This document shows positions 2,783-58,774 of a DNA stretch of 64,000 nucleotides, piece after piece (the first letter of the stretch is position 1; every line of letters begins with the position of its first letter). The notes below the pieces were generated by a model. The model was given only the letters and a program-made list of their open reading frames with translations, was not told the DNA's origin and searched no databases. The position numbers and the translations under genes are program-made. The stretch covers positions 42,921-106,920 of the forward strand of contig CAYGFH010000004.1 in the NCBI GenBank assembly GCA_964349125.1, given 5' to 3'. The DNA is from an uncultured Gammaproteobacteria bacterium. GTDB lineage: Bacteria > Patescibacteriota > Microgenomatia > UBA10105 > UBA927.

Positions 2783-3989
2783 AATCCTGCCAAAAACTAT
2801 ATCCTTCGTTGCGATCCTGCTGCTTTTCCTTACAGCTGGTGTATCAAAGGCGTTTGCAACTCCTAGCGTCCAATTTGATAAAACATCTGTCTCTGTTGCA
2901 CAAGATGCCACTTTTCAACTAAAAGTTAACATAAATGTGGATGCGCACACAGTTTTGGGAAGTGATGCTGTTATCAATTACGCCGGAAGCGATCTGGAAG
3001 TAATATCCATAACAAACGGTGGATTTTTTCCCGAATTCAACAGTGCCAATGCTGCATCAGGGAGACTTGAAATTCATGGGTATACATCTTCCACAAATGA
3101 CAGCCGTACAGGAAACGGTATACTTGCCACTATCGTATTTAAGGCAAAAAAAGGAAGCGGAAGCAGCGCTGTAACGTTTGCATGCACAGGATCAGGTAAC
3201 GATACAAATATTTTAACGACAGCAGGACAGAATGTATTGGCGTGCTCACAGACAAATACAGCCGGCATATCATACACAGGTGTCACGAATACCAACACAC
3301 CTACCCCTACAACTGGATCAGGTAATACTCCCACCCCAACACAAAAGCCTTCAGGTAACACTGCTCCGAATTGTTCCAATCTGTATACTGATATATCCTC
3401 TGCTGTGGGAGCACCTCAGACTATCACACTGACCTGCTCCGGTGCTGATCCGGGTGGATATTTGAACGCTGCGGAATTTGTATTTGGAGATGGTACCACC
3501 CAGGTGGTAGAGAAAAATGCAGGGAGCCCGGGCTCCATTGCTACTGCTCATACGTATACAACAATCGGGACACTCGGCGCATCATGCAGAGTCCGCGATA
3601 ACGATGGGATATGGTCAACCATACCCGATTCATGTAAGAAAGTTGTAAGTATAAAACCAGGATCCACCCCCACCCCTACACAAGCAAGATCATATGGAGA
3701 TAAGGGCGTGACCACCACCATCAAGGTAAGCGGGCCAACACCCACACCAACTAGAATTGTTGTGAGTATTATTTCTGACACTCCGGAACCTACCGTTTCG
3801 ATTGATGAAGGCATTGCTGAACCTACGCTATACCCAGAGGAAGAATCTATAGAATCAGACACCACAACTTCGTCCAACAGAATATGGTGGATCGTAGGAG
3901 GCATCATAGCCATATTGCTTGCATTCCTATTACTGCGACGTAAGGGACCACCACCTTCAGGAGGACAAATCCCAATCGCAAATGTATAA
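2775..3989 (+). CDS. Surface protein: signal peptide, cohesin-like domain, PKD-like domain, PT-linkers, C-terminal transmembrane anchor
   Basis: Signal peptide ending VSKAFA. Cohesin-like segment YAGSDLEVISITNGGFFPEF. PKD-like FVFGDGTT...AHTYTTIGTLGASCRVRDNDG. C-terminal TM IWWIVGGIIAILLAFLLL followed by basic residues. 8-nt overlap with the upstream gene suggests an operon. Confidence 0.6.
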   Translation: MNKILPKTISFVAILLLFLTAGVSKAFATPSVQFDKTSVSVAQDATFQLKVNINVDAHTVLGSDAVINYAGSDLEVISITNGGFFPEFNSANAASGRLEIHGYTSSTNDSRTGNGILATIVFKAKKGSGSSAVTFACTGSGNDTNILTTAGQNVLACSQTNTAGISYTGVTNTNTPTPTTGSGNTPTPTQKPSGNTAPNCSNLYTDISSAVGAPQTITLTCSGADPGGYLNAAEFVFGDGTTQVVEKNAGSPGSIATAHTYTTIGTLGASCRVRDNDGIWSTIPDSCKKVVSIKPGSTPTPTQARSYGDKGVTTTIKVSGPTPTPTRIVVSIISDTPEPTVSIDEGIAEPTLYPEEESIESDTTTSSNRIWWIVGGIIAILLAFLLLRRKGPPPSGGQIPIANV

Positions 3990-5714: not shown

Positions 5715-5802
5715 TGCTGTTGTCATCCCCGACCCGATCGGGGATCAGTAGATCAAAGTAATTAATTTGATCCTCGCATTCGCAAGGATGACAAGAAAAC
5801 TT

Positions 5803-6684: not shown

Positions 6685-6843
6685 ATTTTATTTGTCACTC
6701 CCGACGTCTATCGGAATCATCGAGCAAAAGATCCTCGATACACTTGGAACAGTAGGAAGCATAGGCTAATTGTATTTCCCTTTCATCCCCTTTGTCAATT
6801 TGATATCATAGACTGATAGAAGTTATCAAAACAATAATAATAT

Positions 6844-12179: not shown

Positions 12180-12989
12180 ATGGGAAAAATTCGTGTCGCT
12201 AAACTAGGTGATGAATCAGCAGAAAAAGAGCAGAAAAGAAAAGCTGAAGCCCGTCGCCAAACAAAAGAGTCAAAAAAAATAAAAACTGACGAGTCAGAGA
12301 CTGAAACTACAGCTGTTGTATCTGAAGTTTCCGAAAAATCTGAACCACAATCAAAAAAGAAAAAGGAAACAAACATCAAGGCAAAAGGCCATTCAAAAAA
12401 ATATATTGAGATGTCCTCTTTGGTTGATAAACAAAAGATTTATAGTATTTCTGAGGCTGTATCACTGGTAAAGCAGACCAGTCTCACAACTTTTGACGGT
12501 ACAGTTGAACTCCATATAAATGTGAACCCACAGACTCTGGGAGATAAGAAAGATCTGCGTGGCAGCGTGACGCTTCCCCACGGTACAGGAAAGCAAATCC
12601 GTGTGGTTATAGCTGATGAAGCGATTATTGCTGAGATAGAGGCCGGGAAAATTAATTTTGATATTCTCGTGGCGCACCCAAGCATGATGCCGAAGCTGGC
12701 AAAGGTAGCCAAAGTGTTGGGTCCGAAAGGACTTATGCCGAATCCTAAAAACGGTACGGTCTCCCCTGACCCTGAAAAACGTGTGAAGGATCTCTCAAAC
12801 GGCCAGGTAAACTTTAAAACAGAACCTGACAACCCAATTGTCCATATGATCGTTGGGAAAGTATCATTTGATGATGCGAAACTTGCTGAAAATGTCAAAG
12901 CAGTATTTGCTGCAATTGGCACAAGTAAGATCATCAGAACAACCATAACAGCAACCATGGGACCAGGTGTCAAAGTTGCAACCTCGTAG
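12180..12989 (+). CDS. rplA: 50S ribosomal protein L1 with ~65-aa Lys/Glu/Ser-rich N-terminal extension
   Basis: Core TLPHGTGKQIRVV...VLGPKGLMPNPKNGTV is canonical L1. ATG 12180 follows the SD ggaggtggagg. The ORF-track GTG start at 12138 overlaps rplK and is rejected. Confidence 0.9.
   Translation: MGKIRVAKLGDESAEKEQKRKAEARRQTKESKKIKTDESETETTAVVSEVSEKSEPQSKKKKETNIKAKGHSKKYIEMSSLVDKQKIYSISEAVSLVKQTSLTTFDGTVELHINVNPQTLGDKKDLRGSVTLPHGTGKQIRVVIADEAIIAEIEAGKINFDILVAHPSMMPKLAKVAKVLGPKGLMPNPKNGTVSPDPEKRVKDLSNGQVNFKTEPDNPIVHMIVGKVSFDDAKLAENVKAVFAAIGTSKIIRTTITATMGPGVKVATS
12935..12988 (+). repeat. Direct repeat copy 1 (intact 3' end of rplA) bounding an inserted element
   Basis: 54 bp, 50/54 identical to 16471-16524. 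Confidence 0.85.
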
Positions 12990-13038: not shown

Positions 13039-16000
13039 ATGAGTCGCGAAATGATGTCTCCGTTGGCCGGTTCCATTATGATTGATGGGGTCGATCCCTT
13101 TTTACCTCCAGAAAGCATGGAGCACATGCAATTTGATGATGCTATTTTACGTCGCCAAAGAATTATATTTTCATCAGAAATCGTACCGAGTATTCAAATA
13201 TTCTTATCTGGGGGCACAAACGAAGAAAGACAAGACGCTTATGCAAAACTGTCGTTCGCATTATGGGGTATATATAGATTAAAAAATATTCAAACGGAAT
13301 CTGAATATCCGTGGGAACAGTCTTGGCTTGCCTCTCAGGGACAATCAGAATGGACACCGAATCTGATAGAAAAGTCCCCTTCACAATATGAAATGGCACA
13401 TACCTATTTTTCAAACCTACTGATACCAGCAGATGTATTGGACAGTATGGATTTGCTTCACCTTTCCCAAAAAGAACATTCAGGAATACAGGGGGTTAAA
13501 AAAATCATACATGACAGCACATCACAATTTTTAGCAAGTTTACCGACCGACGCAATGATTACATTTGGCATGGAAGCATTGTCAACTACATTCGCCAATT
13601 CCAATGACTCAATCAGAACAATTGTCACGTCAGCCTTATATCCCCTGATAACCCAATACAAAGCGCAACACTCCAGTGTTGTGTATCATTTCGCTAATCA
13701 GATGCGGGTTGCACGCGAATATGTCACCTCGGTACTTAAAAACTTTTTCGACTCACCCCTGCGCCAACAGTTACTGTCAGAGACGATGAATATACATGAT
13801 CTTGATGCCGCTCATGTTGTAAGCAGTGGATTGTCTGCTGCACTTGACGAGCACGCGTTTACTACTGGATTGCTTCAGTTTAAAAGCACGGTACACGGTC
13901 AAAAAAATGGGGGCATTCTCGCATCTGCTGCATTTTTGACTCCTTTCCCCTTTTTCTATACACAGGCTAGTACCCGCATCGGAGAGCTACTTCGCACACG
14001 TATTGCGTCCAGAAACATTCACGAAATCGCGCCGTCACTTACCGAAAAACACGCCAGAGTCCGCGAAGCGGCATATGCATATCTAAACTTACCTGAATCT
14101 GCAGACATTGCAGAAATACAAAAAGCAGAAGCTAAAATAATTGAGGCAGGCAATACACGGAACCTCTCGCTACTTAGAACGAATCAGCAAACATCTAAAG
14201 ATCGCGCCTGGTTTAAAAGCCTACCGTCGAGCATAGCGTTATTATTGTCCGCTACACGAAATGACGAGCTCATCCAATATGTAACCCCTGTCGCACTTAC
14301 AAGCGGCTCTATGCTAACGGCAATAGGTGACAGCACATCAATGCTCGTTATGCGAAGTATAAACCGAGCGGATACCGATGCCGCCTACACGACCGTCCGA
14401 CAAGCACTTACTCATCTCACAAAACGATTTGGAGAGTTACACCTACCACCTCCCGGGACTGATTATGGTCCATTACCCAATCGAATAACTGTGACCATAA
14501 ATCGCACGAAAAACGGTCAGTTGCCAGTGTTTTCTCAATTACAGTTAGATCCGGGTATAACCGTGTTGACAGGAGAAACCGGTAAAGGAAAATCCACCGT
14601 GATGGATATCATTCACGGAATACACGCACTCGGAAACTACGCCACCATAAACGCTGCCGATATGAATGATATTAGAAATTTCTACGCGTATGACCGTTGG
14701 CAACGTCGTGTAAAGACGGTCTCGGTCAACTTCTCTTTCGGCAGCACACTATCGAGTGAAATCACTCGAAAAATAGTAGCTGGAGAACATGATGGTATTC
14801 AACGAACGATCAATGACTTATTAAGTGACGAACATTCTAATCATCAATATTTGTCACATCTGCTTGACTTATTGACTGATCCGTTAAAAAATCATGAACT
14901 TGCAACCGTACTAGAATCCTGGAAGCAGTCATTATCAACAGAAACGCATACAGAACAGACTCAACCGCTCATAGCCGCGCTTAATGCAGTAATTAAGCAA
15001 TATTTTTCTCAATTCTTTGACGCGAATGAACATGATCGTATAGATCAATTCATGACGACAACCTTTTCAACGAACATGGCAGCTTCTACCGGACAACGAG
15101 CACGAATTGGCCTCGCATTATCGCTTATGTCAGATGCCGATATGTATTTATTCGATGAGATTTCAGGAAACCTAGATACCAAAACCACCGTAAAAATTGC
15201 AGATATACTTCTACAATTCATTGCATCACATAAACAATCGAAATTTATACTTTCTATTCATGATCCAATATTTCTTAATAAAATTTGGGCGTTTGGACCA
15301 CAAAGAATATACGACTTTGATACCTCATCTGTTTGGGAAAACTCTACTGATGTTGAAAATTTTGTGGATACAATACAAAGCAGGATACTACAGACGGAGC
15401 AGGCACAGTCATTTACAGCTGAATCTGCACATGAGTTACTACAGGCACTTTCACATCATCTTGACGCATGGGATAAGGAGAGTCTCAATGAATACACCCT
15501 CGAACAATTAATACATACGGTTGATATTGTACGGGTTATGTTATCAAAGACGAATATGCATGTATTACAGCATAATATCAACCCATCCGCTCGATTTGAT
15601 GAGTATTTTGATAGTGTGATTGCCCCGATTCACAAAACGCTATATCGCATCGCGGACACAGTATTTACTAAGCGCATTTGGGAACTGCTCAAGAATAATA
15701 ATACAATGCCCTGGTATACACTCAATCAAATTCACAAGCTCGTATGGCAAATGAATCAAATTGGACTGATCTCAAAAGGCATCATTCCTGAATCAACAAG
15801 AACGGCTCGAGATTATTCTAAAGATGCATTTTTTAATTGGCAGGACTATGTTCGTGGTAAACGAGTCATGGTAAAAGATTTTACAGGACTCGCTAACCAT
15901 AAATACCAGGTAAAATCACTATTTGCAGATACAACATTTGAAAGAAATATTCGACATCTTCGTATAAATCATCTTGCAAAAATATTTTCCGACTTCAGAT

Positions 16001-16407
16001 CTACACCATCATATATCACACAGACTGTTTCTACAAAACTGTTACGAAGTGATTTGCTGTCCGGATTACTTTCAGGTAGCGCAGTATCCAATCAATCGAA
16101 CTACGGAATGGATATATTAGGTCAAAGAGTGTCGAGACTGGTGGCTCACTTACTCATGGAAGTGAAGACCAATCCTGTGTTTGCCGAGGAGACCGAACGC
16201 ATTATACGTAACATTACGACAGAGATCTTGCCGGATTTTTTGAAGCAGCGGGGTGTAAAAATGACCAACGTATCACAATGGATGTCTCATTGGGTGGCTC
16301 AAAACGATCCTCGCGTTCAGTCTATTTTGTTAACGGAACTGCCGAAATATCCGTCTATAGCACATGAATATATTTCTCTGCTTAAAAAATGTGATCAGAT
16401 ACGATAG
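13039..16407 (+). CDS. Large (1122 aa) soluble protein with central ABC-type ATPase domain (RecF/SMC/AAA_21-like) flanked by ~490-aa N- and ~370-aa C-terminal regions of unknown function
   Basis: Walker A ITVLTGETGKGKSTV, signature-like STGQRARIGLALSL, Walker B/D-loop MYLFDEISGNLD and H-loop FILSIHD in the expected order and spacing; no TM segments. Confidence 0.7.
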   Translation: MSREMMSPLAGSIMIDGVDPFLPPESMEHMQFDDAILRRQRIIFSSEIVPSIQIFLSGGTNEERQDAYAKLSFALWGIYRLKNIQTESEYPWEQSWLASQGQSEWTPNLIEKSPSQYEMAHTYFSNLLIPADVLDSMDLLHLSQKEHSGIQGVKKIIHDSTSQFLASLPTDAMITFGMEALSTTFANSNDSIRTIVTSALYPLITQYKAQHSSVVYHFANQMRVAREYVTSVLKNFFDSPLRQQLLSETMNIHDLDAAHVVSSGLSAALDEHAFTTGLLQFKSTVHGQKNGGILASAAFLTPFPFFYTQASTRIGELLRTRIASRNIHEIAPSLTEKHARVREAAYAYLNLPESADIAEIQKAEAKIIEAGNTRNLSLLRTNQQTSKDRAWFKSLPSSIALLLSATRNDELIQYVTPVALTSGSMLTAIGDSTSMLVMRSINRADTDAAYTTVRQALTHLTKRFGELHLPPPGTDYGPLPNRITVTINRTKNGQLPVFSQLQLDPGITVLTGETGKGKSTVMDIIHGIHALGNYATINAADMNDIRNFYAYDRWQRRVKTVSVNFSFGSTLSSEITRKIVAGEHDGIQRTINDLLSDEHSNHQYLSHLLDLLTDPLKNHELATVLESWKQSLSTETHTEQTQPLIAALNAVIKQYFSQFFDANEHDRIDQFMTTTFSTNMAASTGQRARIGLALSLMSDADMYLFDEISGNLDTKTTVKIADILLQFIASHKQSKFILSIHDPIFLNKIWAFGPQRIYDFDTSSVWENSTDVENFVDTIQSRILQTEQAQSFTAESAHELLQALSHHLDAWDKESLNEYTLEQLIHTVDIVRVMLSKTNMHVLQHNINPSARFDEYFDSVIAPIHKTLYRIADTVFTKRIWELLKNNNTMPWYTLNQIHKLVWQMNQIGLISKGIIPESTRTARDYSKDAFFNWQDYVRGKRVMVKDFTGLANHKYQVKSLFADTTFERNIRHLRINHLAKIFSDFRSTPSYITQTVSTKLLRSDLLSGLLSGSAVSNQSNYGMDILGQRVSRLVAHLLMEVKTNPVFAEETERIIRNITTEILPDFLKQRGVKMTNVSQWMSHWVAQNDPRVQSILLTELPKYPSIAHEYISLLKKCDQIR

Positions 16408-16470
16408 TTTAAAATCTTTTGGTCCATCTGTCTGTTTCATTTAAAAAACATAAATGTATCTCCGCCGCTT

Positions 16471-16524
16471 CAAAACAACGATAACAGCAACCATGTGAAC
16501 AGGTGTCAAAGTTGCAACCTCGTA
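16471..16524 (+). repeat. Direct repeat copy 2 (degenerate pseudo-copy of rplA 3' end)
   Basis: 54 bp with 4 mismatches to 12935-12988; contains an in-frame TGA. Confidence 0.85.
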
Positions 16525-18299: not shown

Positions 18300-18678
18300 T
18301 GTCACGAAAGTGGGAAAAGTAACAGAAAGTGCATCTGTACCTGTGGAGTTCAGATTCCCTTCCTCTTGAATGTATAGCCGATTTGCGCTATACTATACTC
18401 ACCCTAAAGATAGTAGGTTTCGCCTGTAAGGCGAATGAATTCGAAAGAGCCTACCGAAGGAACATAAGTAGTTAACGGTTTTTGTTTATAGTTCATAGTG
18501 ATACTATGACCAATGAACAAATAACCCTGAACGAATGTTTCCCGCTTTAGGCGGGATTTTTTGTGAATACTTAGCGAGTTTATTCCTATAAACGAGCTTA
18601 GTATGAACAATCCAGCGTAAGCTGGATACAGCTTGAAATATATCTAGCGAAGCTAGAAACATTATGTAAAGGAGATAT
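18300..18678 (+). promoter_or_regulatory. Structured rplJ 5' leader (L10-leader-like) with internal attenuator hairpin
   Basis: Conserved position upstream of rplJ; hairpins tcgcct-gtaa-ggcga, cccgc-tttag-gcggg plus T-run, and ccagc-gtaa-gctgg. Confidence 0.35.
18538..18563 (+). terminator. Attenuator/terminator hairpin in the rplJ leader
   Basis: cccgc tttag gcggg followed by attttttg, about 115 nt before the rplJ ATG. Confidence 0.45.
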
Positions 18679-21237: not shown

Positions 21238-21438
21238 ATGTCACTAGGTGATGAATGGCCAGACTTATTAACCGTACGAGAAGTTGCAAAAATACTACGA
21301 GTATCACCTCTTACGATAAAACGATGGGGCAAACGGGGAAAGCTTCCTGCGATCCGAATCAACTCACGCGGAGACCGCAGATATAAGAAAGAAGCTGTGA
21401 TGTGGCTTCTGGGATTACAACAAAAAGGGCAAGTTTAA
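21238..21438 (+). CDS. Excisionase/AlpA-like helix-turn-helix DNA-binding protein
   Basis: LLTVREVAKILRVSPLTIKRWGKRGKLPAIRI matches the phage excisionase-family HTH_17 pattern. Confidence 0.6.
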   Translation: MSLGDEWPDLLTVREVAKILRVSPLTIKRWGKRGKLPAIRINSRGDRRYKKEAVMWLLGLQQKGQV

Positions 21439-21488
21439 GACAGGTTTTGGTTATTAGTTAGATAGTTACTTGGTTATTGGTTGAATCG

Positions 21489-21848
21489 TTATTTAGCCTT
21501 AGAAATACTATTCTTTAGTGCAGTAATAGTTTTTGCCATACTATATATCCTATCGTATAGCTGTGTGAATTTAACCATGTCAACAACCTGTATATTTCGT
21601 GCGATTGTTAGTATTGCAATACATTCATAGCATGATCCTCGGGATATAGATAAAAAATGCGCGAAATCCTTACTCGTTCTTCCGGAACCTTCGGCAATAT
21701 TGAGTGGAATAGAAAGCGCAGCCCGCTGAATCTGATCAACTAGGCTGAATTTATATATCGTTGGCCATTCTTTAGTCAACGTGTACATCGTCGATACAAA
21801 ATCGATTGAATCCTGATAAATTCTAAGCTCATCAAACTTAAACTTCAT
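21489..21848 (-). CDS. Four-helix-bundle protein (23S rRNA intervening-sequence protein family)
   Basis: LRIYQDSIDF...LSIPLNIAEGSGRTSKDFAHFLSISRGSCYECIAIL signature; flanked by inverted tandem-repeat arrays. Confidence 0.75.
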   Translation of the reverse strand: MKFKFDELRIYQDSIDFVSTMYTLTKEWPTIYKFSLVDQIQRAALSIPLNIAEGSGRTSKDFAHFLSISRGSCYECIAILTIARNIQVVDMVKFTQLYDRIYSMAKTITALKNSISKAK

Positions 21849-21908
21849 CAATAACAGTATCTCACAACATATCTAAGTAACCAAGTAACTAACTATCCAA
21901 GTAACTAA

Positions 21909-22724
21909 TTACTCTATAATCGCTTCACCGTGAACGCCTACTTTTTTCATCGGCTTTGCGGTCTGCCATACGTAATCAAATATTTGCGTCTGCATATGTG
22001 CAAGCTCTTTGTTGTGAATCTCTACACAAAATTCTTCGCCCGTGCCATATTGATACATACAATACACATCATTATAAATAAGCACTTCAAATTTCATTGC
22101 CAATAATTTAGGATCAACGTATCGTACAATCCAATACTTCATGAGCTGAGTGACATCTGTATACGGTGAAATGTGTTTCACACCTGTTAGTTGATGAGTT
22201 ATGATACTCCTTTTGACCAATTCCTCCCGTATCGTCTCACTAAAATCCTGAGGTAAAAATACAGACATACTGTCATATTTTTCATAAATTCGTAAAATCC
22301 CATTGGCATTCAGTGAATTCCATGTCACGTGCTTAAGACCATCTATCCCATGATGATAAAATACTTTTGATCTCTCACTCCCCGACCCTATAATTGCTGA
22401 TAATTGGTTAAATAACGATGGCATAGATGCACGAAGATTGTTCACCTGTTGTTCTTTTTCAGTGAGCAATAATTCCAACTGGGTATATGGGGTTGCCTGA
22501 AATTTAAGTCCGGGATGATCTAATTGCTGCGTCACAAGACCTTTCGTTAATAGTTTGTCCAAAAGTCTGTACACACGCGTTCGAGCCATATGAAGATCAC
22601 GACTGATAGCGAGGGCGGATTGTGAGTGTTTTTGAAGCAAATTGAGGTATATTTTTGCTTCTTCAGCTGTTAAACCAAACGAAACAAGAGTCTTCGAAAG
22701 TATGTCTGTTTGATCGGACATCAT
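21909..22724 (-). CDS. TrmB-family transcriptional regulator
   Basis: N-terminal winged HTH GLTAEEAKIYLNLLQKHSQSALAISRDLHMARTRVYRLLDKLLTKGLV plus TrmB-type C-terminal domain. Confidence 0.65.
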   Translation of the reverse strand: MMSDQTDILSKTLVSFGLTAEEAKIYLNLLQKHSQSALAISRDLHMARTRVYRLLDKLLTKGLVTQQLDHPGLKFQATPYTQLELLLTEKEQQVNNLRASMPSLFNQLSAIIGSGSERSKVFYHHGIDGLKHVTWNSLNANGILRIYEKYDSMSVFLPQDFSETIREELVKRSIITHQLTGVKHISPYTDVTQLMKYWIVRYVDPKLLAMKFEVLIYNDVYCMYQYGTGEEFCVEIHNKELAHMQTQIFDYVWQTAKPMKKVGVHGEAIIE

Positions 22725-27786: not shown

Positions 27787-29640
27787 TTATCCTGTATGGA
27801 ATTTCCTGACAGTGCGAACAATCGCTGCTGAATCTATTTCTTCAAATGACAATAGTTCTTTGGCTTTGCCCGATCGTGGTGTTTTAGTCACTGCCAGATG
27901 ATGAATAGGTACTACGGGTGTTTGTGCCAGTGCAGATTGCACAGCTTCACCTAAGCCCCCCTCAGCGTAGTGATCCTCCACCACAATAATCGCCTTGGTT
28001 TCACCAGCTGCCGTACGAAGCGTCATAGCATCTATGGGTTTCACGCTGTAGCAATCTATAACGCGAATACCAATACCTTCTTTTTCCAATACTGACTGTG
28101 CGTCGAGTGCCTCATGCAGCGTCACACCTGCCGCCACCACAGTCACAATCTCGTTTTTCCCAGGGTACACTTTTGATCCACCGATGGTAAATGTATCGTC
28201 TGTGGTGTAAAGGATTTTTGTTTCCGGACGTGATGTCCTGATATAGACTATACCCTTTTGCTGTAGGGCAAGCTCGGCCAGACGCTCTGTAGAAACTGCA
28301 TCTGATGGATACAGGACTGTGGAGCCATGAACTGATCTGAATAATGAAAGATCCTCAAGTCCCATCTGAGACGGACCATCTTCGCCGATTGATACTCCTG
28401 AGTGTGACCCATTAATCAAGATATTGCTTCCCGAGAATGTGGCCATACGAATCTGATCGGCAGCCCGTAAGAGAAAACACGCAAATGAAGCAACCACAGG
28501 ATGGTATCCGCGCGCTGAGAATCCGACGGCAACACCAAGCATATTTTGTTCTGCAATAAACAGTTCGATAAACCGGTCTGGAAATGCAGTACCAAACGAA
28601 TCTATGTACGTGGAATTTTTGGTATCTCCATCTATGGCGACGATATCAGGATGTGATGCACCCAATCGTTTGAGCGCATTACCAAAGGCTTTACGGGTGG
28701 CTGTGGGTTTATCATAAACAAGCTTGTCATCCCCGACCTGATCGGGGATCAATTTCCCGGGCACCTTTAAACCGGGTTCCGGCTCGGGGGCCGGAATGAC
28801 AGTTCCGATTAGACTCGTATCCACTTCTCCCAACTCAGCAATCGCTTTCGGAAGCTCATCCTTCGACAGAGGTTTACCGTGCCATCCCTCTTTGTCTGCA
28901 AGAAATGATATGCCTGCGCCTTTTTGTGTTTTTGCCAATATGACGGTAGGTCTGCCATCGGTTTGTACGACAGTATCAAAGGCTTTTTCAACGACATCCA
29001 ATTCATTCCCATGTTCAATCGTCACCACCCGCCATCCAAATGCGGTAAACCGATTCACAAATACCGAGACGTCATGTCCATACATGGTCGGATCTGATTG
29101 ACCCAACCTGTTTATATCTACGAACAAAAACAGATTATCCACACGTTTGTAACTCGCGGCGGCGGCGGCTTCCCACACTGACCCTTCTGCTATCTCACCA
29201 TCTCCGGCAAGAACAAATACTCTGGGAGTATTATTACCACCAAACTGCATACGCAGTGCCAATGCTTCCCCGAGTCCGATGCTAAGACCCTGTCCTAATG
29301 AGCCGGTTGCGGCCTCGGTATATGCGAACCGCTCGGTTGGATGTCCCTCCAAGACACTGTCAAATGTGCGATATTTCAATAATTCGTCCCGGCTAATGAC
29401 ACCCGCGGCGGCATAGAGTGAATAGTATAGTGGAGACGCGTGTCCCTTACTGAATATGACACGATCGTTACTGGGATTCTTCGGATTGTTCATGTCATAG
29501 CGCAGATGTTTGAAAAACAACACGGTCATCATCTCGACAGCCGAAAGTGATGATGTCGGATGTCCGGATCCCGCTGTAGTCGTTATGGTAAGTATGTCAT
29601 GACGGATACGTTTTGTGAGGTCAAGAAGTTGTGTGTTCAT
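27787..29640 (-). CDS. tkt: Transketolase
   Basis: GSGHPTSSLS, GHASP, TPP-binding GDGE..EG motifs; about 617 aa. Confidence 0.9.
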   Translation of the reverse strand: MNTQLLDLTKRIRHDILTITTTAGSGHPTSSLSAVEMMTVLFFKHLRYDMNNPKNPSNDRVIFSKGHASPLYYSLYAAAGVISRDELLKYRTFDSVLEGHPTERFAYTEAATGSLGQGLSIGLGEALALRMQFGGNNTPRVFVLAGDGEIAEGSVWEAAAAASYKRVDNLFLFVDINRLGQSDPTMYGHDVSVFVNRFTAFGWRVVTIEHGNELDVVEKAFDTVVQTDGRPTVILAKTQKGAGISFLADKEGWHGKPLSKDELPKAIAELGEVDTSLIGTVIPAPEPEPGLKVPGKLIPDQVGDDKLVYDKPTATRKAFGNALKRLGASHPDIVAIDGDTKNSTYIDSFGTAFPDRFIELFIAEQNMLGVAVGFSARGYHPVVASFACFLLRAADQIRMATFSGSNILINGSHSGVSIGEDGPSQMGLEDLSLFRSVHGSTVLYPSDAVSTERLAELALQQKGIVYIRTSRPETKILYTTDDTFTIGGSKVYPGKNEIVTVVAAGVTLHEALDAQSVLEKEGIGIRVIDCYSVKPIDAMTLRTAAGETKAIIVVEDHYAEGGLGEAVQSALAQTPVVPIHHLAVTKTPRSGKAKELLSFEEIDSAAIVRTVRKFHTG

Positions 29641-33750: not shown

Positions 33751-33755
33751 ATATT

Positions 33756-33785
33756 CGTTAATCGTTAATCGTTAATCGTTAATCG
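33756..33785. repeat. Tandem heptamer array (cgttaat)x4
   Basis: Perfect 7-bp periodicity; followed by gcgatttacgatt and cgcggttagcggtttgcgag, which recur inverted at 43951-44013. Confidence 0.85.
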
Positions 33786-33833
33786 AACTCACTTTATGCG
33801 ATTTACGATTCGCGGTTAGCGGTTTGCGAGGTT

Positions 33834-37834: not shown

Positions 37835-38149
37835 TTACCGCGATAATTTCGCTCCCAGAGCCTCGTACGCGGTTTCCAATTTCTGGAATGTCTCGTCGCT
37901 TACGGCCTGCTGTGCCCATGCAACAGACAGGAGACTCCGAAGGCCGGCAACAAGGCCCATGGCGTCACGGAGTTTGCTGTCACGATCCCGACGGTCCCGT
38001 CGGGAAACCCCATCTGCGATGGTTGATAATATCTTTAACCCATGGGTTTGTGCTTGTTTGATAACTTCCGCGTCCACTGTGACCTCACAGAGATCCAACA
38101 CAGCGGTGTATGCTTCCTGCCACAGTTTATCATCGTGAAAAGTTGACAT
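37835..38149 (-). CDS. Divergent four-helix-bundle-like protein, GC-rich relative to surroundings
   Basis: LWQEAYTAVLDL...ILSTIADGVSRRD parallels the W-Q helix and IAEG-RR helix of the four-helix-bundle family; call is tentative. Confidence 0.4.
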   Translation of the reverse strand: MSTFHDDKLWQEAYTAVLDLCEVTVDAEVIKQAQTHGLKILSTIADGVSRRDRRDRDSKLRDAMGLVAGLRSLLSVAWAQQAVSDETFQKLETAYEALGAKLSR

Positions 38150-38153
38150 AATA

Positions 38154-38184
38154 TCGTTAACCGTTAATCGCTAATCGTAAAACG
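38154..38184. repeat. Heptamer array cgttaac-cgttaat-cgctaat-cgtaaaa (left flank of four-helix-bundle gene)
   Basis: 7-bp periodic; inverted partner at 38585-38620. Confidence 0.8.
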
Positions 38185-38202
38185 CACAACGGTGTTTTCG
38201 GA

Positions 38203-38583
38203 TTATCGACTACCAGCTCCTCGTTCTTCAATTGATCGTATAAGACCACTAATAATTTGAAATCCACGCTTTACGAGCAACAACATTGAATCAAATTCTG
38301 TTATCGAAATATATCCTAAATCTTTTGATAAAATCAGAAAATTCTCGACTTCAGTATTAGATCCACGCGCTTGATAGTAAAACTTTGTTCTATCGGCAAA
38401 ATGATACCGTCCCCAACCTTCTGCAATATTGACAGTAACTGAGGACGACGCACGACGTAACTGATCTATAATACCAAATTTCTCACTACTGGGAAAGTTT
38501 TTTGTTAATTGATACACATGAAGACATATTTCATGACTCACTTTCCAAGCTTCTAAGTCCGTAAAATGCGTTATAGTATTCAT
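38203..38583 (-). CDS. Four-helix-bundle protein (23S rRNA intervening-sequence protein family)
   Basis: LEAWKVSHEICLHVYQLTKNFP...VTVNIAEGWGRYHFADRTKFYYQARGSNTEVENFLIL. Confidence 0.8.
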   Translation of the reverse strand: MNTITHFTDLEAWKVSHEICLHVYQLTKNFPSSEKFGIIDQLRRASSSVTVNIAEGWGRYHFADRTKFYYQARGSNTEVENFLILSKDLGYISITEFDSMLLLVKRGFQIISGLIRSIEERGAGSR

Positions 38584-38584
38584 A

Positions 38585-38620
38585 ATCGCGATTCACGTTT
38601 AACGATTAGCGTTTAGCGAG
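38585..38620. repeat. Inverted heptamer array (reverse complement reads cgctaaa-cgctaat-cgttaaa-cgtgaat)
   Basis: Inverted partner of 38154-38184, flanking the four-helix-bundle gene. Confidence 0.75.
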
Positions 38621-38623
38621 AAT

Positions 38624-40105: not shown

Positions 40106-40175
40106 AGATCCTCATAATACCTAAGTTACAGTGGTCCGGTAAAGAGGGACGTGAACTCAGTGGTTAGGGGTTAGT

Positions 40176-40215
40176 ATAATTATATACGCAATACGCTTTA
40201 CCCTACACCCTTTAC
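40176..40215. repeat. Heptamer-periodic repeat (minus-strand reading gtaaagc gtaaagg gtgtagg gtaaagc)
   Basis: Read from sequence between zwf and the LytR_C gene. Confidence 0.5.
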
Positions 40216-40226
40216 GCTTTACGCGT

Positions 40227-40967: not shown

Positions 40968-41065
40968 AATTAATATCTATTATATACAACATTGTCATTC
41001 CTGCGAAAGCGGGAATCTTAACCATTACAGATTCCCGATCAGTGTCGGAGATGACACAAATACTT

Positions 41066-42936: not shown

Positions 42937-42941
42937 AGTTA

Positions 42942-42976
42942 GGTTGTAGGTTGTAGGTTGTAGGTTGTAGGTTGTA
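42942..42976. repeat. Tandem heptamer array (ggttgta)x5, abutting an inverted ctacNNN array at 42981-43010
   Basis: Perfect 7-bp periodicity. Confidence 0.85.
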
Positions 42977-43012
42977 GATATGCCCTACTCTCTACCCGCT
43001 ACCGCCTACGAA

Positions 43013-43237
43013 CTAGTATTGTTTTCTCAAATCTTCCAGTGTCTCAGATTTATATGGCCATTTGACCCAGCCTGTGTGTGACATTTTTTTGCGAGCAGGG
43101 GCAATTACAAGAATAAGAGGTATGCAAATGATATACAACATGGAGTAGAGTGCTTGAGCTAAGGCGCCAAACACAGCATAATGCATATCACGAAGCGTTT
43201 GGTAATAATGAACATACAGAGAGGGAGATGCTGCCAT
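43013..43237 (-). CDS. Small hypothetical membrane protein
   Basis: 74 aa with one TM helix. Confidence 0.35.
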   Translation of the reverse strand: MAASPSLYVHYYQTLRDMHYAVFGALAQALYSMLYIICIPLILVIAPARKKMSHTGWVKWPYKSETLEDLRKQY

Positions 43238-43945: not shown

Positions 43946-43950
43946 TTTTT

Positions 43951-44013
43951 TCGCTAACCGCTAACCGCTACTCGCTAAAAGCGATTTACGATTAACGTTT
44001 TGCGTTTAACGAT
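43951..44013. repeat. Heptamer array cgctaac-cgctaac-cgctact-cgctaaa plus gcgatttacgatt core; inverted relative of 33756-33830
   Basis: Shares gcgatttacgatt and the ttagcgg/cgctaac repeats with the 33.8 kb locus in inverted arrangement. Confidence 0.7.
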
Positions 44014-44016
44014 GTT

Positions 44017-56104: not shown

Positions 56105-56127
56105 AGGCAGGATTTATGAGTATGTAG

Positions 56128-56146
56128 GAGGTAGTGAGTAGTCAGT
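56128..56146. repeat. Heptamer array gtaggag-gtagtga-gtagtca-gtag (left inverted repeat of four-helix-bundle cassette)
   Basis: Reverse-complement partner ctactcactactcactact at 56525-56546. Confidence 0.75.
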
Positions 56147-56155
56147 AGATACAAG

Positions 56156-56524
56156 CTACTTTCTAGGTTCCACCACCTGCAATCTCCGTATCAATACATT
56201 TAGCATTTTCATAATTTCTTCTATGCTTTTGTTCAGTGTATCAAATTGATGCGTGTTAATATAGTCAATGCGTTTTGATATGTATAATTGTGTTTCAAAC
56301 TCTGCTCCTGATCCATATGCCATTCGTAAAAAATGAATATACTCATTAGTATGCCCTCTTCTTTGCCCTTCAGCAATATTTGAAGGAATAGAAACGCAAC
56401 TTCTTCGAATCTGCGAAACTAGACCGTATACTTCAGATTTTGGGAACTTATCGGTAATTGCGTAAACAGACACACATAAATCGATTGATTTCTGCCACAC
56501 GATCAATTCTTTATAGCTTTTCAT
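56156..56524 (-). CDS. Four-helix-bundle protein (23S rRNA intervening-sequence protein family) embedded in the signalling operon
   Basis: YKELIVWQKSIDLCVSVYAITDKFP...VSIPSNIAEGQRRGHTNEYIHFLRMAYGSGAEFETQL. ATG 56524 preferred over GTG 56533. Confidence 0.8.
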   Translation of the reverse strand: MKSYKELIVWQKSIDLCVSVYAITDKFPKSEVYGLVSQIRRSCVSIPSNIAEGQRRGHTNEYIHFLRMAYGSGAEFETQLYISKRIDYINTHQFDTLNKSIEEIMKMLNVLIRRLQVVEPRK

Positions 56525-56546
56525 ACTACTCACTACTCACTACTTA
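56525..56546. repeat. Right inverted repeat (actactcactactcactact) of the four-helix-bundle cassette
   Basis: Reverse complement matches the gtagtga array at 56128-56146. Confidence 0.75.
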
Positions 56547-58774
56547 ACTATCTCCTCCAATATTTCTTCTTTTGTCACAAGGCCGGTTATCACGAATTTT
56601 ATTATTCCTTTTCGATCGACGAATATGTGAGTCGGAGAGGTTCTATACATCACAGAATCAACCAATATCCCATCCGGATCAGCTACTATCCGCACATCGT
56701 ATGAGCCGCGTTTCATAAATGTCGCAACTGACGCAGTACTTTCCTGTGGAACAATCACAATAGTATGCACTGAACTCAGCGTTTTCAACGTATCCAAAAT
56801 GGATATCTGTGGAGATGTGATCGGCGACCATGTGTTTAGAAGTGTAATGAGCGTCGGCTTACCACGAAGATCAAGTGATGAAATAAATTTCCCATCAAAT
56901 GGAAAGCGGAAGTACTGCATTTCTTTGCCTATCACACCTGCATTTTTGACACCGCCCGTATCGTTTAACAGACCCGCGACGCGAATGACAGTGCGCGTTT
57001 CTGAAAAATCAAATAACGGTAGTAACCATCGCCCGATTTGAATACCAAACGCCCTCTCCATCTGAATGTTCTGGGCAATCGGTGAAATGTTGTTTACATC
57101 AAATATATCGCTGATTACCGTTTTATACCCAAATGCTTTCACGCGCACATAATATTTCCCGCTGGGAACGGCAAACCCATACTCGCCTGATTTCCCCGTA
57201 CTAAATGGATTTTTTTGTCCGTATGATTTTCCGTCCCACTGTACAAACTGCGCTGTGGCATTGTCCAACACGAACATAGTCACTTCTGCATGTTCAATAG
57301 GCTTTGCATTTGAATCAAGAATCACACCACCGGACAGAACGGAAACTTGCATAACCTCGGTGACGGTTTTGTTTGCGGCGCCATCAATGGCCACACCAAA
57401 GACCGTATAGGTACCAGCCTGATCAAATCGCATTGCCGCACGCCATAGACCTGTATCAATGTTTTTTTGCGCAGTCATATCTGCTACTTCACCCCGACTG
57501 TTTTCTACTGAGTACTTCACGGATACAGGACCACCAATAATTGACGTGGTAAACACATACTCCATTCCCGAAACCACATGCATATTGCCACCGACAGGTT
57601 CAATAACCTGTGAACCGAATGTGACTATGGTGGCACCTACCTGCGGAGGCATGCGATCAACGGTGTAACTGCCGATTTTTTGCGTGGACGTATTGCCTTT
57701 ACCATCAAGGCTTCTGATAACCAACGCATAACTTCCATCGTCGAATTGATATGGCGTAAAAGTGAATGGTATCGACGTCTTACCGAACGCTCGAATGCCA
57801 TCCACCGGTACGAAGTTGATACCACCATCAAGCGAATACTCCAGAGTGGTAACGCCGCTACCGTCTGTCGCGGTACCGACAATCTCCGGCGGTTCTGTAT
57901 AGATTTTTTCGAACTTCGTCTTTATGCTTATCCGAGGACCAACTCTGTCCGGGATCGGTGTGGGCGTAGGGCTCGCGAAAACAATGCGAACTGTTCCTGT
58001 AGTCGTTGTCGTTGTCGTACTTGACGCCGCGTTTGTTACAAACGTGTTTTCTCCGGAATCTCCTGTGTTACCCGCCGCATCCGTACTTTGGACGGAATAG
58101 TGATACGTAGTCAGTGCGGATAGACTGTCTATGGTGACACTATGACTGGTCGTGAGCGATGTATCTGTTTTTGTGGCACCGTAATCTCCGGTCGTCCCGT
58201 ACTGAACGATAGATGTAGCCGCCTCATCTGTCGTCCACATAATGCGCGCACTCGTGGCGCCAATATCAGTGACTGTCAATGAAGATATAGTCGGTGCACT
58301 TGAATCACCACCACCTCCGGTAATGGAAGTCCCTAGTGATCCGGAACAGGACGTCGCATCCGCACCACCCTCATCGGACGATAATTGTATCCCCCAATTA
58401 GCAGCCCCTGCTGTCACATTACCACTTGTCACCTGGATGGAGAATGAATAGGTTTCTCCTGCATCCACACTTCCACCTGTCATGGTCATTGTAGAAGAAT
58501 CAATCGAGTTGCTCCATCCGGGCGAAGATGGGCTTCCTGCAAACGTAAAGTTTCCCGAAGGTACAGTAAGTTTGATCCAAGATCCTGCTTCGGCATTATC
58601 GGTATTATTTGTGACGCTAAACGTTATAGTGTTTGTAGTTTCCGCGGGAACACTATCCATGTCTACTGTTGCACCACAGGACGAGATGGAGGCAAACACT
58701 GTGTGTGGAGTTATTAAAAACAGCGTGGCACAGAAGGCATATACAATCGTATGGGCAATACGTGGCAGTTTCAT
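56540..58774 (-). CDS. Secreted multi-domain protein: FN3/Big-like repeats, CarboxypepD_reg-like domain and C-terminal Cys-less thioredoxin-like fold (paralog B)
   Basis: Signal peptide MKLPRIAHTIVYAFCATLFLITPHTVFA. FN3-like IMWTTDEAATSIVQYGTT. NTWSPITS where WCxxC is expected. ATG 58774 preferred because the 58816 start leaves no divergent promoter space. Confidence 0.6.
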   Translation of the reverse strand: MKLPRIAHTIVYAFCATLFLITPHTVFASISSCGATVDMDSVPAETTNTITFSVTNNTDNAEAGSWIKLTVPSGNFTFAGSPSSPGWSNSIDSSTMTMTGGSVDAGETYSFSIQVTSGNVTAGAANWGIQLSSDEGGADATSCSGSLGTSITGGGGDSSAPTISSLTVTDIGATSARIMWTTDEAATSIVQYGTTGDYGATKTDTSLTTSHSVTIDSLSALTTYHYSVQSTDAAGNTGDSGENTFVTNAASSTTTTTTTGTVRIVFASPTPTPIPDRVGPRISIKTKFEKIYTEPPEIVGTATDGSGVTTLEYSLDGGINFVPVDGIRAFGKTSIPFTFTPYQFDDGSYALVIRSLDGKGNTSTQKIGSYTVDRMPPQVGATIVTFGSQVIEPVGGNMHVVSGMEYVFTTSIIGGPVSVKYSVENSRGEVADMTAQKNIDTGLWRAAMRFDQAGTYTVFGVAIDGAANKTVTEVMQVSVLSGGVILDSNAKPIEHAEVTMFVLDNATAQFVQWDGKSYGQKNPFSTGKSGEYGFAVPSGKYYVRVKAFGYKTVISDIFDVNNISPIAQNIQMERAFGIQIGRWLLPLFDFSETRTVIRVAGLLNDTGGVKNAGVIGKEMQYFRFPFDGKFISSLDLRGKPTLITLLNTWSPITSPQISILDTLKTLSSVHTIVIVPQESTASVATFMKRGSYDVRIVADPDGILVDSVMYRTSPTHIFVDRKGIIKFVITGLVTKEEILEEIVK

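Follow-up and report, generated by a model that had tools for sequence, protein, structure and literature searches.

Three genes for small four-helix-bundle proteins in the window--that is, in the whole stretch of 64,000 nucleotides analyzed here--each lie between a tandem-repeat array and its reverse-complement partner, as an earlier note on this DNA had claimed, and on balance each such element is probably a self-contained stem-loop gene cassette of the intervening-sequence (IVS) type, residing in an operon spacer. Because the same layout surrounds most of the sampled relatives of one of these proteins, the genes look like self-contained stem-loop cassettes set between ordinary genes.

Cassettes and their protein family

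Profile matches identify all three open reading frames, which are on the minus strand, as members of PF05635/TIGR02436 (104.7, 112.5 and 139 bits for PF05635, relative to a cutoff of 33.8; 98-135 bits for TIGR02436, relative to a cutoff of 24), and thus uphold their earlier description as four-helix-bundle proteins; they are mutually 30-34% identical. The features of the three cassettes and of a neighboring family gene are:

21849..21908, minus strand: cassette 1, 5' arm (sense), TTAGTTAC/TTGGATAG-type 8-nt units
21489..21848, minus strand: cassette 1 gene, four-helix-bundle protein of 119 aa (PF05635, E = 3.6e-30; TIGR02436)
21439..21488, minus strand: cassette 1, 3' arm, filling the spacer down to the stop of a MerR-like gene
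37835..38149, minus strand: fourth, divergent four-helix-bundle gene, 104 aa, without arms of its own (PF05635, 34.4 bits, just above the cutoff)
38150..38202, minus strand: cassette 2, 3' arm, CGATTAG/CGATTAA/CGGTTAA heptamers, adjoined by the next gene's ATG
38203..38583, minus strand: cassette 2 gene, four-helix-bundle protein of 126 aa (PF05635, E = 1.4e-32)
38584..38623, minus strand: cassette 2, 5' arm, CGCTAAA/CGCTAAT/CGTTAAA heptamers, with the zwf stop codon immediately before it
56105..56155, minus strand: cassette 3, 3' arm, CTACTGA/CTACTCA/CTACCTC heptamers upstream of a Cache sensor gene
56156..56524, minus strand: cassette 3 gene, four-helix-bundle protein of 122 aa (PF05635, E = 8e-41; NF008911 above cutoff)
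56525..56550, minus strand: cassette 3, 5' arm, GTAGTGA heptamers

The 5' arm of cassette 1 spans the entire spacer from the stop codon of a TrmB-like gene to the cassette gene, and the MerR-like gene at the opposite end (21238-21435, plus strand) is convergent with the cassette gene; the 5' arm of cassette 3 extends to the ATG and, at its other end, overlaps the stop codon of a 758-aa gene that lies upstream. Cassette 3 does lie, as had been proposed, inside a signaling operon, namely within a co-directional array of sensor/PAS genes, and its sequence is identical across four independent assemblies, so that it is not an assembly artefact (L001-L003 are the same sequence as the window and hence are uninformative for comparison). 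An Rfam search of the window returned no match, and the cassettes are flanked by protein-coding genes (TrmB, MerR, zwf, an RRM protein, a phosphatase/redoxin protein and the Cache sensor), which agrees with the claim that these genes lie outside rRNA.

Of the 12 relatives that were read, nine (all except L088-L090) have the orthologue of the fourth, armless gene as the next gene after zwf, at a distance of 5-42 nt in eight of these relatives and of 139 nt in L091. The spacer upstream of zwf in L087 was considered as a cassette site and rejected, its contents being a VapBC-like pair. This armless family member, the TAG/CTA core described below, the generality of the arrangement and the gene-less hairpins are all absent from the earlier note.

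Proteins of PF05635/TIGR02436 have been enigmatic since they were first found, in the 1990s, in the 23S rRNA IVSs of Leptospira and Coxiella. The family is very large and spans many phyla, with over 2000 clusters at E < 1e-10 for a single query; viral contigs are nearly devoid of its genes, the one viral locus itself having arms. Only two solved structures are detectable by sequence, 2GSC (E = 9e-22) and 2RLD (E = 3e-7), each with five chains per PDB entry; since 2GSC is also described as a homopentamer (PMC4990558), the cassette proteins are presumed to be pentameric as well. They match Avd profiles weakly (bAvd, NF033474, phrog_3206), scoring 34.3 against NF033474, relative to an equivalog cutoff of 80, and a PADLOC search returned no match.

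Complementarity and folding of the arms

The arms consist of tandem 7-8 nt units (as detected by TRF), and their inverted segments are 78-94% complementary: 23 nt at 87% for cassette 1 (21454-21476 / 21878-21900), 32 nt at 78% for cassette 2 (38154-38185 / 38588-38619) and 18 nt at 94% for cassette 3 (56131-56148 / 56526-56543). Each cassette has a unit of its own, as had been noted, sharing being confined to the cassette 2 subfamily. When all 56 genes of the window are scored for the complementarity of their flanks, the cassette genes rank as the top three (35, 31 and 31; next best 20), where the 99.9th percentile of 3000 random control positions is 24. The suggested RNA folding check likewise comes out in favor of a stem: in both the minimum free energy (MFE) and the centroid fold of each complete cassette the flanks are paired, the arm-arm duplexes being 29, 27 and 17 bp long with energies between -27 and -29 kcal/mol (z from -2.8 to -5.1 relative to shuffled 3' arms). 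The repeats permit several alternative pairing registers, and for the complete 500-nt folds the z-scores are weak, from -0.9 to -1.7. Alignment scores with matched controls replaced a sliding RNA duplex energy across the window, which was not discriminating because GC-rich chance pairs outscore the AT-rich arms; degenerate arrays were missed both by a strict search for tandem arrays and by one for short hairpins.

Survey across phyla

The census of family genes and their flanks that the earlier note called for was carried out on 72-75 relatives of the cassette 3 protein, which are 44-61% identical to it over the matched segment and come from about a dozen phyla. Flank complementarity exceeds the 95th percentile of controls for 61% of these with 70-nt flanks and for 76% with 160-nt flanks, and exceeds the 99th percentile for 50% with 160-nt flanks; a flank score of at least 25 is reached by 51% of family genes versus 3.6% of neighboring genes (p = 5e-18). 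About one quarter of family genes are without significant arms. The enrichment is thus strong across phyla and wider than had been proposed, and, among the genes compared, arrays do not occur equally around unrelated ones.

The surveyed arms are about 30 nt long, with a period of 7 in 30 of 40 (75%) and of 8 in 8 of 40 (20%), and their units mostly have TAG as the core on the 5' side, with CTA as its counterpart on the 3' side. TAG recurring at 7-8 nt spacing is found upstream of the gene at 31 of 79 loci and downstream at 2 of 79, with CTA as the mirror image; because an inverted repeat is symmetric, this apparent 'polarity' of the arms relative to the gene was rejected as a genuine one. Such TAG arrays (118 observed, 6.7 expected) are concentrated 18-fold beside family genes, 65% of them lying within 100 nt of one. 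The paired part of the 5' arm contains 0-6 TAGs (mode 4), with none at all in 13 of the 51 well-armed cassettes; cores of the TAA or TGA type are rare relative to TAG; and the mismatch rate at TAG:CTA columns is 6.6% versus 21% at other columns.

The genes are co-directional with both neighbors at 53 of 68 loci, within spacers of about 50 nt, and promoter-like and terminator-like sites are not in excess at the cassettes. Since T-tracts are absent and the loops are about 360 nt long, a role as terminator or attenuator was rejected. No rRNA was found at some 100 family loci (20 loci checked for rRNA and 105 for rRNA motifs). Arm similarity tracks protein similarity weakly (rho = 0.14), and a distant array has 7-mers in common with the arms of its own locus in 26% of cases, versus 1.3% when the arms are those of other loci. 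The sense strand shows no G:U excess (28 G:U-compatible mismatches, 26 A:C), so that DNA-level or protein-binding roles for the arrays have to be considered, and the duplex energies of the sense strand cannot be told apart from those of the antisense strand (36:42, p = 0.65).

Gain, loss and turnover

Empty sites, which the earlier note had proposed to look for, are found for cassettes 1 and 2 in the syntenic relatives L104 and L103, where arms and gene are absent together and where the flanking coding sequences align up to the stop and start codons at the cassette sites. In L104 a 16-nt spacer stands in place of all of 21439-21908, and cassette 2 (38150-38623) is also missing from L087 and L094. 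Hence the cassettes are gained or lost as whole units--a comparison between species rather than between strains--and, gene and both arms acting as a single unit, the view that these are not ordinary genes holds.

At the same time, cassettes persist vertically over long periods. Cassette 3 has an orthologue at the same position in L084 (72% identity by BLASTP; 68.9% over the global alignment), and in both genomes the arms are complementary while differing from each other in sequence, the L084 stem pairing only at 4-nt cores that are separated by 3x3 loops. Six Flavobacterium species likewise possess orthologous cassettes whose arms are different yet complementary, as do CPR loci with a common downstream gene that starts with 'MQFxVPQF', loci which, going by this shared start, may be read as orthologous. 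In other words, arm units turn over fast while the complementarity of the two arms is maintained. The cassette proteins are under purifying selection, with a dN/dS of about 0.1 (0.09-0.13): 0.09 for the cassette 2 gene relative to its L097 orthologue and 0.13 for the cassette 3 gene relative to L084.

Gene-less hairpins

Hairpins that are built from the same repeat units, but that lack a gene, coexist with the cassettes; these are listed here together with a further period-7 hairpin:

18471..18532, strand not assigned: period-7 hairpin with a 3-nt loop (z about -4, both strands)
33751..33833, minus strand: gene-less heptamer hairpin of the cassette 2 unit family (CGCTAAC.../CGATTAA x4), filling the rpiB-rpe spacer
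42937..43015, minus strand: gene-less hairpin of GTAGnnn / CTACAAC heptamers (z = -3.0)
43946..44016, minus strand: gene-less heptamer hairpin of the cassette 2 unit family, in the response-regulator/LytR_C spacer (z = -4.3)

The hairpin at 42937-43015 forms 4-bp GUAG:CUAC helices with 3x3 internal loops between them. Gene-less hairpins are absent at both orthologous sites that could be compared (in L103 and L104); the rpiB-rpe spacer of these relatives is 2-4 nt long.

Proposed mechanism and alternative explanations

As a stem-loop cassette, each element would have the four-helix-bundle gene in its loop and the two inverted repeat arrays, with their 7-8 nt units, as its stem; it takes up the whole spacer between two host genes, usually in the same orientation as these. 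Given the usual co-orientation, and since no separate promoter or terminator was detected, it is probably transcribed within the host operon. The arms of such a transcript can pair as an imperfect helix of about 17-45 bp, which would join the ends of the cassette and sequester the sequence immediately before the start codon. On the model of the family's cassettes in 23S rRNA, RNase III would be expected to cut this stem, freeing the cassette RNA. The 42937-43015 and L084 stems, with their core-only pairing and 3x3 loops, would be poor RNase III substrates. Because a TAG every 7 or 8 nt puts stop codons in all three frames, and because an inverted repeat keeps its layout when reverse-complemented, so that these stops meet ribosomes coming from either side and on either strand, the TAG spacing may also keep the arms untranslated and free for pairing.

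Several points count against parts of this model: the severing of host operon mRNA that RNase III cleavage would entail; the rarity of TAA and TGA cores, which does not follow from a pure 'any stop codon' rationale; the lack of an RNA-specific signature; the weak whole-fold z-scores; and the quarter or so of family genes without significant arms.

The earlier note also suggested that the cassettes might be mobile, and it is conceivable, if rather unlikely, that they are DNA-level mobile elements of a hairpin type, with the arms as terminal inverted repeats, the protein as a mobility cofactor that recruits host enzymes (as Avd works with a reverse transcriptase) and the gene-less hairpins as non-autonomous, MITE-like derivatives. 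The strand symmetry of arm complementarity would suit such an element, as would the joint gain and loss of arms and gene between species and the lineage specificity of the gene-less hairpins, two of which in the window belong to the cassette 2 unit family. The sharing of 7-mers between distant arrays and same-locus arms (26% versus 1.3%) points the same way, as does the cassette 2 subfamily, which retains CGNTAAN arm units in three unrelated contexts, including Parcubacteria. Other hallmarks of mobility are missing: there is no target-site duplication at the four junctions compared; no near-identical copies were found, paralogues being 30-34% identical; no terminal inverted repeat is common to all copies, the unit differing from cassette to cassette; and no transposase, recombinase or reverse transcriptase adjoins the cassettes in the window. 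Orthologous cassettes, moreover, stay in place between species and at higher ranks even as their arms change, and the correlation between arm and protein similarity is weak (rho = 0.14).

About equally doubtful is the possibility that the arrays are protein-binding sites, the spaced TAG (UAG) cores being putative targets of the presumably ring-shaped protein encoded in the loop, by analogy with TRAP; binding would then lead to autoregulation or to an RNP, with the complementary arm as an anti-site and the gene-less hairpins as targets in trans. That the core is conserved at 7-8 nt spacing while the remaining positions vary freely, that in some stems the cores alone pair, and that gene-less arrays are cognate with the arms of local cassettes are all consistent with binding, as are the 0-6 TAGs (mode 4) per paired 5' arm, set beside a presumed pentamer, and the match between the cassette 2 unit family and its protein subfamily. 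Beyond that one subfamily, however, the protein-unit correlation is weak, 13 of the 51 well-armed cassettes have no TAG in their paired part, and Avd, though it binds nucleic acid, does so with no sequence specificity that we know of. A more speculative combination, no likelier than either of these alternatives, would make the protein and its TAG heptamers a cognate system, in which the pentamer recognizes its own UAG/TAG units in RNA or single-stranded DNA; cassettes and same-unit hairpins might then form a genome-wide post-transcriptional network, or a transposase-less hairpin element spread via an Avd-like cofactor, for which the 23S IVS would be a special landing site.

Heptamer arrays also occur in spacers of the window that lack a family gene, and one might suppose that generic low-complexity heptamer spacers, common in these genomes, flank the family genes by chance. 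This is highly improbable, inasmuch as the three highest of the window's 56 flank scores belong to family genes, high flank scores characterize 51% of family genes versus 3.6% of their neighbors, TAG arrays are concentrated 18-fold beside family genes, and the arrays are missing from the orthologous spacers of relatives.

Significance and comparison with known systems

Most of the sampled free-standing copies of the family keep an IVS-like stem of fast-evolving, complementary TAG heptamers, an arrangement for which a literature search returned no description, heptamers being mentioned only in the Coxiella paper. If this holds genome-wide, rRNA IVSs would be a special form of a more general cassette embedded in operons; the family would acquire a testable cis element (as a site of RNase III cutting, as a target for repeat binding by the protein, or as an insulator with stops in three frames); and annotation would gain a signature for cassettes and their gene-less derivatives. 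It would also bear on the recruitment of Avd-like proteins by DGRs and account for part of the intergenic heptamer repeats in CPR, Bacteroidota and other genomes.

IVSs that contain an open reading frame are located inside helix 25 or 45 of 23S rRNA and occur in Coxiella burnetii (helix 45), Leptospira, Xanthomonas and Brucella. The link that the earlier note drew to them is apt: both kinds of element are about 430-480 nt in total and carry an S23p/PF05635 protein in the loop; the cassettes, too, have terminal inverted repeats that form a long stem around an S23p-family reading frame; and the Coxiella IVS has variable-copy tandem heptamers in the arm of a 28-bp terminal stem, which RNase III cuts at the first repeat (PMC4990558). 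In contrast, the window cassettes lie between protein-coding genes rather than in rRNA, their proteins are under purifying selection while the Coxiella reading frame is decaying, the usual heptamer core is TAG rather than GACAGAT, and RNase III cutting, published for Coxiella, is predicted here by analogy.

Avd, the DGR accessory protein, is itself a pentamer and shares the homologous four-helix-bundle fold, but cassettes have neither an adjacent reverse transcriptase nor a TR/VR repeat pair, and we know of no flanking inverted heptamer arrays around Avd genes in published DGR loci. A DGR role for the cassettes was rejected, the NF033474 score being far below cutoff and a search for TR/VR-like repeats finding none. 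The RNase III processing stems that flank 16S and 23S rRNA and that separate the early mRNAs of phage T7 similarly involve long-range pairing around a gene-sized loop in a longer transcript; these stems, however, are of unique sequence, whereas cassette stems are tandem short repeats and their cleavage is putative. REP/BIME, MITE and cyanobacterial STRR heptamer repeats (the last reportedly described by Mazel in 1990 and by Elhai in 2008) are short, intergenic, palindromic or heptameric and variable among relatives, and the gene-less hairpins resemble them; but cassette repeats share a core of at most 3-4 nt family-wide, have their own unit in each copy and are tied to one specific protein family, and STRR units, to our knowledge, lack TAG. 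TRAP, finally, binds (G/U)AG triplets spaced 5-6 nt apart, so that a ring-shaped oligomer and evenly spaced UAG-containing repeats recur in both systems; this likeness is one of analogy only, since the folds are unrelated, the cassette units recur every 7-8 nt instead of every 5-6 nt, and binding by cassette proteins is hypothetical.

Repeat-flanked four-helix-bundle genes in the window

Three window genes, each on the minus strand, are clear members by profile search of the four-helix-bundle family PF05635/TIGR02436 (the "23S rRNA intervening-sequence", or IVS, proteins). Each is bracketed by tandem arrays of 7-8 nt units (termed here the 5' and 3' arms, in gene sense), one side being the reverse complement of the other. 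Gene and arms together constitute a cassette, and the intergenic spacers are almost wholly taken up by the arms.

Cassettes in the window
21439-21908, gene on minus strand: cassette 1, from the stop of a TrmB-like gene to the stop of a convergent MerR-like gene
38150-38623, gene on minus strand: cassette 2, from the zwf stop to the ATG of a fourth, divergent family member
about 56105-56550, gene on minus strand: cassette 3, between a 758-aa phosphatase/redoxin-like gene and a Cache sensor gene

Both the family assignment and the inverted arrays had been proposed in an earlier note from the DNA alone, and both are borne out. The flanks of each cassette pair in MFE and centroid folds, the arm duplexes of cassettes 1-3 comprising 29, 27 and 17 bp at -27 to -29 kcal/mol. 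When the upstream flank of a gene is scored against the reverse complement of its downstream flank, the cassette genes are the top three of 56 window genes (scores 35, 31 and 31; next best 20), the 99.9th percentile of random positions being 24. Promoter-like or terminator-like sites are not above chance in the three cassettes. Cassette 3 is base-for-base identical across four independent assemblies. Pairwise identity among the three proteins is only 30-34%; they are therefore old paralogues, not recent copies. (The MerR/HTH_17-like gene convergent with cassette 1, at 21238-21435 on the plus strand, encodes 66 aa, below the 80-aa limit of the ORF list, and so was unlisted; its product is 97% identical to the copy in the syntenic relative L104.)

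A census across phyla

Relatives of cassette 3's protein were aligned with it and 80 loci were fetched from species-representative genomes; over the matched segment these proteins share 44-61% identity with cassette 3, so the census covers a single branch of the family. Among the groups represented are Patescibacteria, Bacteroidota, Bacillota, Pseudomonadota, Planctomycetota, Omnitrophota, Ignavibacteria and Acidobacteriota, and no locus lies in rRNA. At 53 of 68 census loci the family gene runs in the direction of both neighbours, and at 61 of 68 in that of the upstream neighbour; the median spacers (51 and 45 nt) are essentially arms alone; co-transcription with the host operon appears likely.

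With 70-nt flanks the median score is 25 for family genes versus 13 for cross-locus control pairs, and 61% of family genes exceed the control 95th percentile; with 160-nt flanks 76% exceed that percentile and 50% the 99th. Scores of at least 25 belong to 51% of family genes; among 306 neighbouring genes the share is 3.6% (p 5e-18), so the equal occurrence around unrelated genes that the note had named as contrary to its proposal is not seen. A chance origin of the arms is excluded.

Viral contigs yielded a single close relative (L106, 2400-2980, from IMG/VR), which has AGTTGCC heptamers upstream and a complementary array downstream. At a Faecalibacter locus (L075), a GGGACTN-type heptamer array of more than 120 nt lies downstream of position 3360, after the family gene, with no matching upstream arm within the 160-nt flank.

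Arm anatomy and a periodic TAG core

Census arms have a median length of 30 nt and a period of 7 in 30 of 40 cassettes, 8 in eight and 9 in two; a period of 6 was found in none. Unit sequence varies by locus, with a recurring core of TAG in the 5' arm and CTA in the 3' arm, the most frequent 4-mers being TTAG and CTAA. At least three TAGs at 7-8 nt spacing occur upstream at 31 of 79 loci versus downstream at 2, and CTA arrays mirror this (25 of 79 downstream versus 5 upstream). Mismatches affect 6.6% of TAG columns versus 21% elsewhere. The 433 kb of census loci contain 118 such TAG arrays, where 6.7 would be expected; the zones within 100 nt of family genes, 3.65% of the sequence, hold 65% of them.

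Because an inverted repeat is identical on both strands, the assignment of TAG and CTA to arms has no polarity with respect to the gene: whichever strand is read, and from whichever side it is entered, TAG comes up every 7-8 nt on the way in, which places a stop codon in all three frames. This three-frame stop may be the property under selection; TAA and TGA cores are much rarer than TAG, however, which argues for a more specific cause than "any stop codon".

Gain, loss and persistence

The transketolase of the window organism is nearest to those of Patescibacteria/Gottesmanbacteria MAGs (57-66% identity to named matches), tentatively placing the organism near this group. Between 48 and 18298 lie six large ORFs (359-1122 aa) without a Pfam match at E 1e-8; the first, 48-1127, has internal 118-nt repeats (203-320 and 638-755). 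Together with the transketolase, these ORFs suggest a CPR genome.

Gene order is kept over 12-17 kb in two relatives, L104 (GCA_964430295.1; transketolase 75% identical) and L103. Cassette 1 is missing from L104 and cassette 2 from both, gene and arms gone together. At these empty sites, whose existence the note had left to be looked for, flanking coding sequences align up to stop and start codons, and the spacers are 16-42 nt of unrelated sequence. A closer relative, L097, retains cassette 2 (83% protein identity). The suggestion of possibly mobile stem-loop cassettes holds insofar as arms and gene are gained and lost as a unit, but shared TIRs are absent and no target-site duplication is visible at the junctions compared.

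The fourth family member reads as follows:
37835-38149, minus strand: divergent four-helix-bundle gene, 104 aa, PF05635 34.4 bits, armless

In 9 of 12 relatives read, the orthologue directly follows zwf, at a distance of 5-42 nt in eight and of 139 nt in L091. The gene has the look of a fixed, perhaps domesticated member of the family, and the insertion of cassette 2 separated it from zwf. The layout differs at three other loci, L088 (2459-2546, 2931-3000), L089 and L090: rather than single arms, two complete TTAATTAG/CTAATTAA hairpins frame a family gene that lies downstream of zwf. Upstream of zwf, the spacer of a relative (L087, 1384-2011) holds another ORF and a VapBC-like pair, whose members are 81 and 132 aa long, the larger being putatively PIN-like from size and sequence; the corresponding window spacer is 121 nt and repeat-rich.

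L084-L086 carry a cassette 3 orthologue (72% local identity by BLASTP, 68.9% global) in a matching gene context, with different arm units: GTAGGTK x6, versus GTAGTGA x3 in the window. An orthologous cassette is present in six Flavobacterium species; its arms (AGTAGCTG, AAGGCACT, AGGTTCA...) differ in sequence while each pair is still complementary, and several CPR loci with differing units share a downstream gene start, MQFxVPQF, which we read as one putative orthologous site. Arm sequence turns over; complementarity, periodicity and core are retained. Values of dN/dS (0.13 for cassette 3 versus L084, 0.09 for cassette 2 versus L097) show clear purifying selection on the proteins, a sign that they matter. 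Cassettes, therefore, come and go as units and can persist long.

Among relatives of cassette 2 in unrelated contexts, the closest (L098, 65%; Parcubacteria loci L099/L100, 66%) have the CGNTAAN/CGATTAA unit family in common with it. When every cross-context pair is considered, more similar proteins have only slightly more similar arms (rho 0.14); co-transfer of arms and gene is therefore clear for this one subfamily and elsewhere is blurred by turnover.

Gene-less hairpins and other repeats

Operon spacers in the window are also filled by hairpins without a family gene, in each of which a loop of 3-13 nt separates a heptamer array from its inverted counterpart.

Gene-less hairpins in the window
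18471-18532: gene-less hairpin
33751-33833: cassette-2 unit family, rpiB-rpe spacer
40106-40226: weak (fold z -0.4)
42937-43015: GTAGnnn/CTACAAC units, like cassette 3 and L084
43946-44016: cassette-2 unit family

Those at 33751-33833 and 43946-44016 are missing from the orthologous L104 spacers, the former also from L103; in the window rpiB and rpe lie 83 nt apart, versus 2-4 nt in these relatives. In the census, 34 TAG arrays are separated from a family gene by more than 150 nt; 9 of them have at least 30% of their 7-mers in common with the arms of their own locus, versus 1.3% reaching this level with arms of other loci.

Two further repeats were seen. A small palindrome, GTCATCCCCGAC-N-GATCGGGGAT, occurs at 5722-5745, 6694-6717, 28726-28749 and 40994-41016 (three copies in spacers, one in the transketolase ORF) and in the L104 gnd-pgl spacer; and 55-nt direct repeats, 93% identical (12934-12988 and 16470-16524), flank ORF 13039-16407, whose 1122-aa product is without a Pfam match.

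Possible mechanisms

By analogy with rRNA intervening sequences, the favoured and somewhat probable reading is that these are IVS-type stem-loop cassettes: the arms would pair within the host operon transcript, the paired arms would probably be processed by RNase III, and the TAG periodicity would keep translating ribosomes off them. The sense strand has no G:U excess (28 versus 26 mismatches), sense and antisense duplexes do not differ in energy, and some stems pair only at cores, all of which counts against an exclusively RNA-level role. The element might also be a DNA-level hairpin, with gene-less derivatives and with the protein as a cofactor like Avd (the four-helix-bundle accessory protein of diversity-generating retroelements, DGRs), though this seems unlikely. 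That the arrays are spaced binding sites for a putative pentamer encoded in the loop is likewise doubtful. Each of these alternatives is compatible with an IVS-type cassette.

Comparison with known systems

Identity of the proteins with DGR Avd is rejected (NF033474 below cutoff; no reverse transcriptase, no TR/VR pair), as is that of the cassettes with transposons or MITEs (no TIRs shared between copies, no target-site duplications). The nearest documented system, built of the same parts, is the ORF-bearing IVS of 23S rRNA. The 428-nt Coxiella IVS encodes an S23p family protein, and its ORF is preceded by GACAGAT tandem heptamers that vary in copy number. RNase III cuts within the 28-bp terminal stem of this IVS, at the first repeat (PMC4990558); CPR rRNA insertions sometimes carry an S23p-type ORF (bioRxiv 10.1101/2024.02.27.582315). 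Membership of the window cassettes in this class fails on location, 23S IVSs residing in rRNA whereas the cassettes occupy operon spacers. In the literature searched, heptamers near family genes are mentioned only for the Coxiella IVS, and no description of inverted TAG-heptamer arrays at free-standing family genes was found; most subscription journals lay beyond the search, so an earlier description is possible. The family and the IVS stem were already known; inverted TAG-heptamer arms around free-standing family genes are apparently new.
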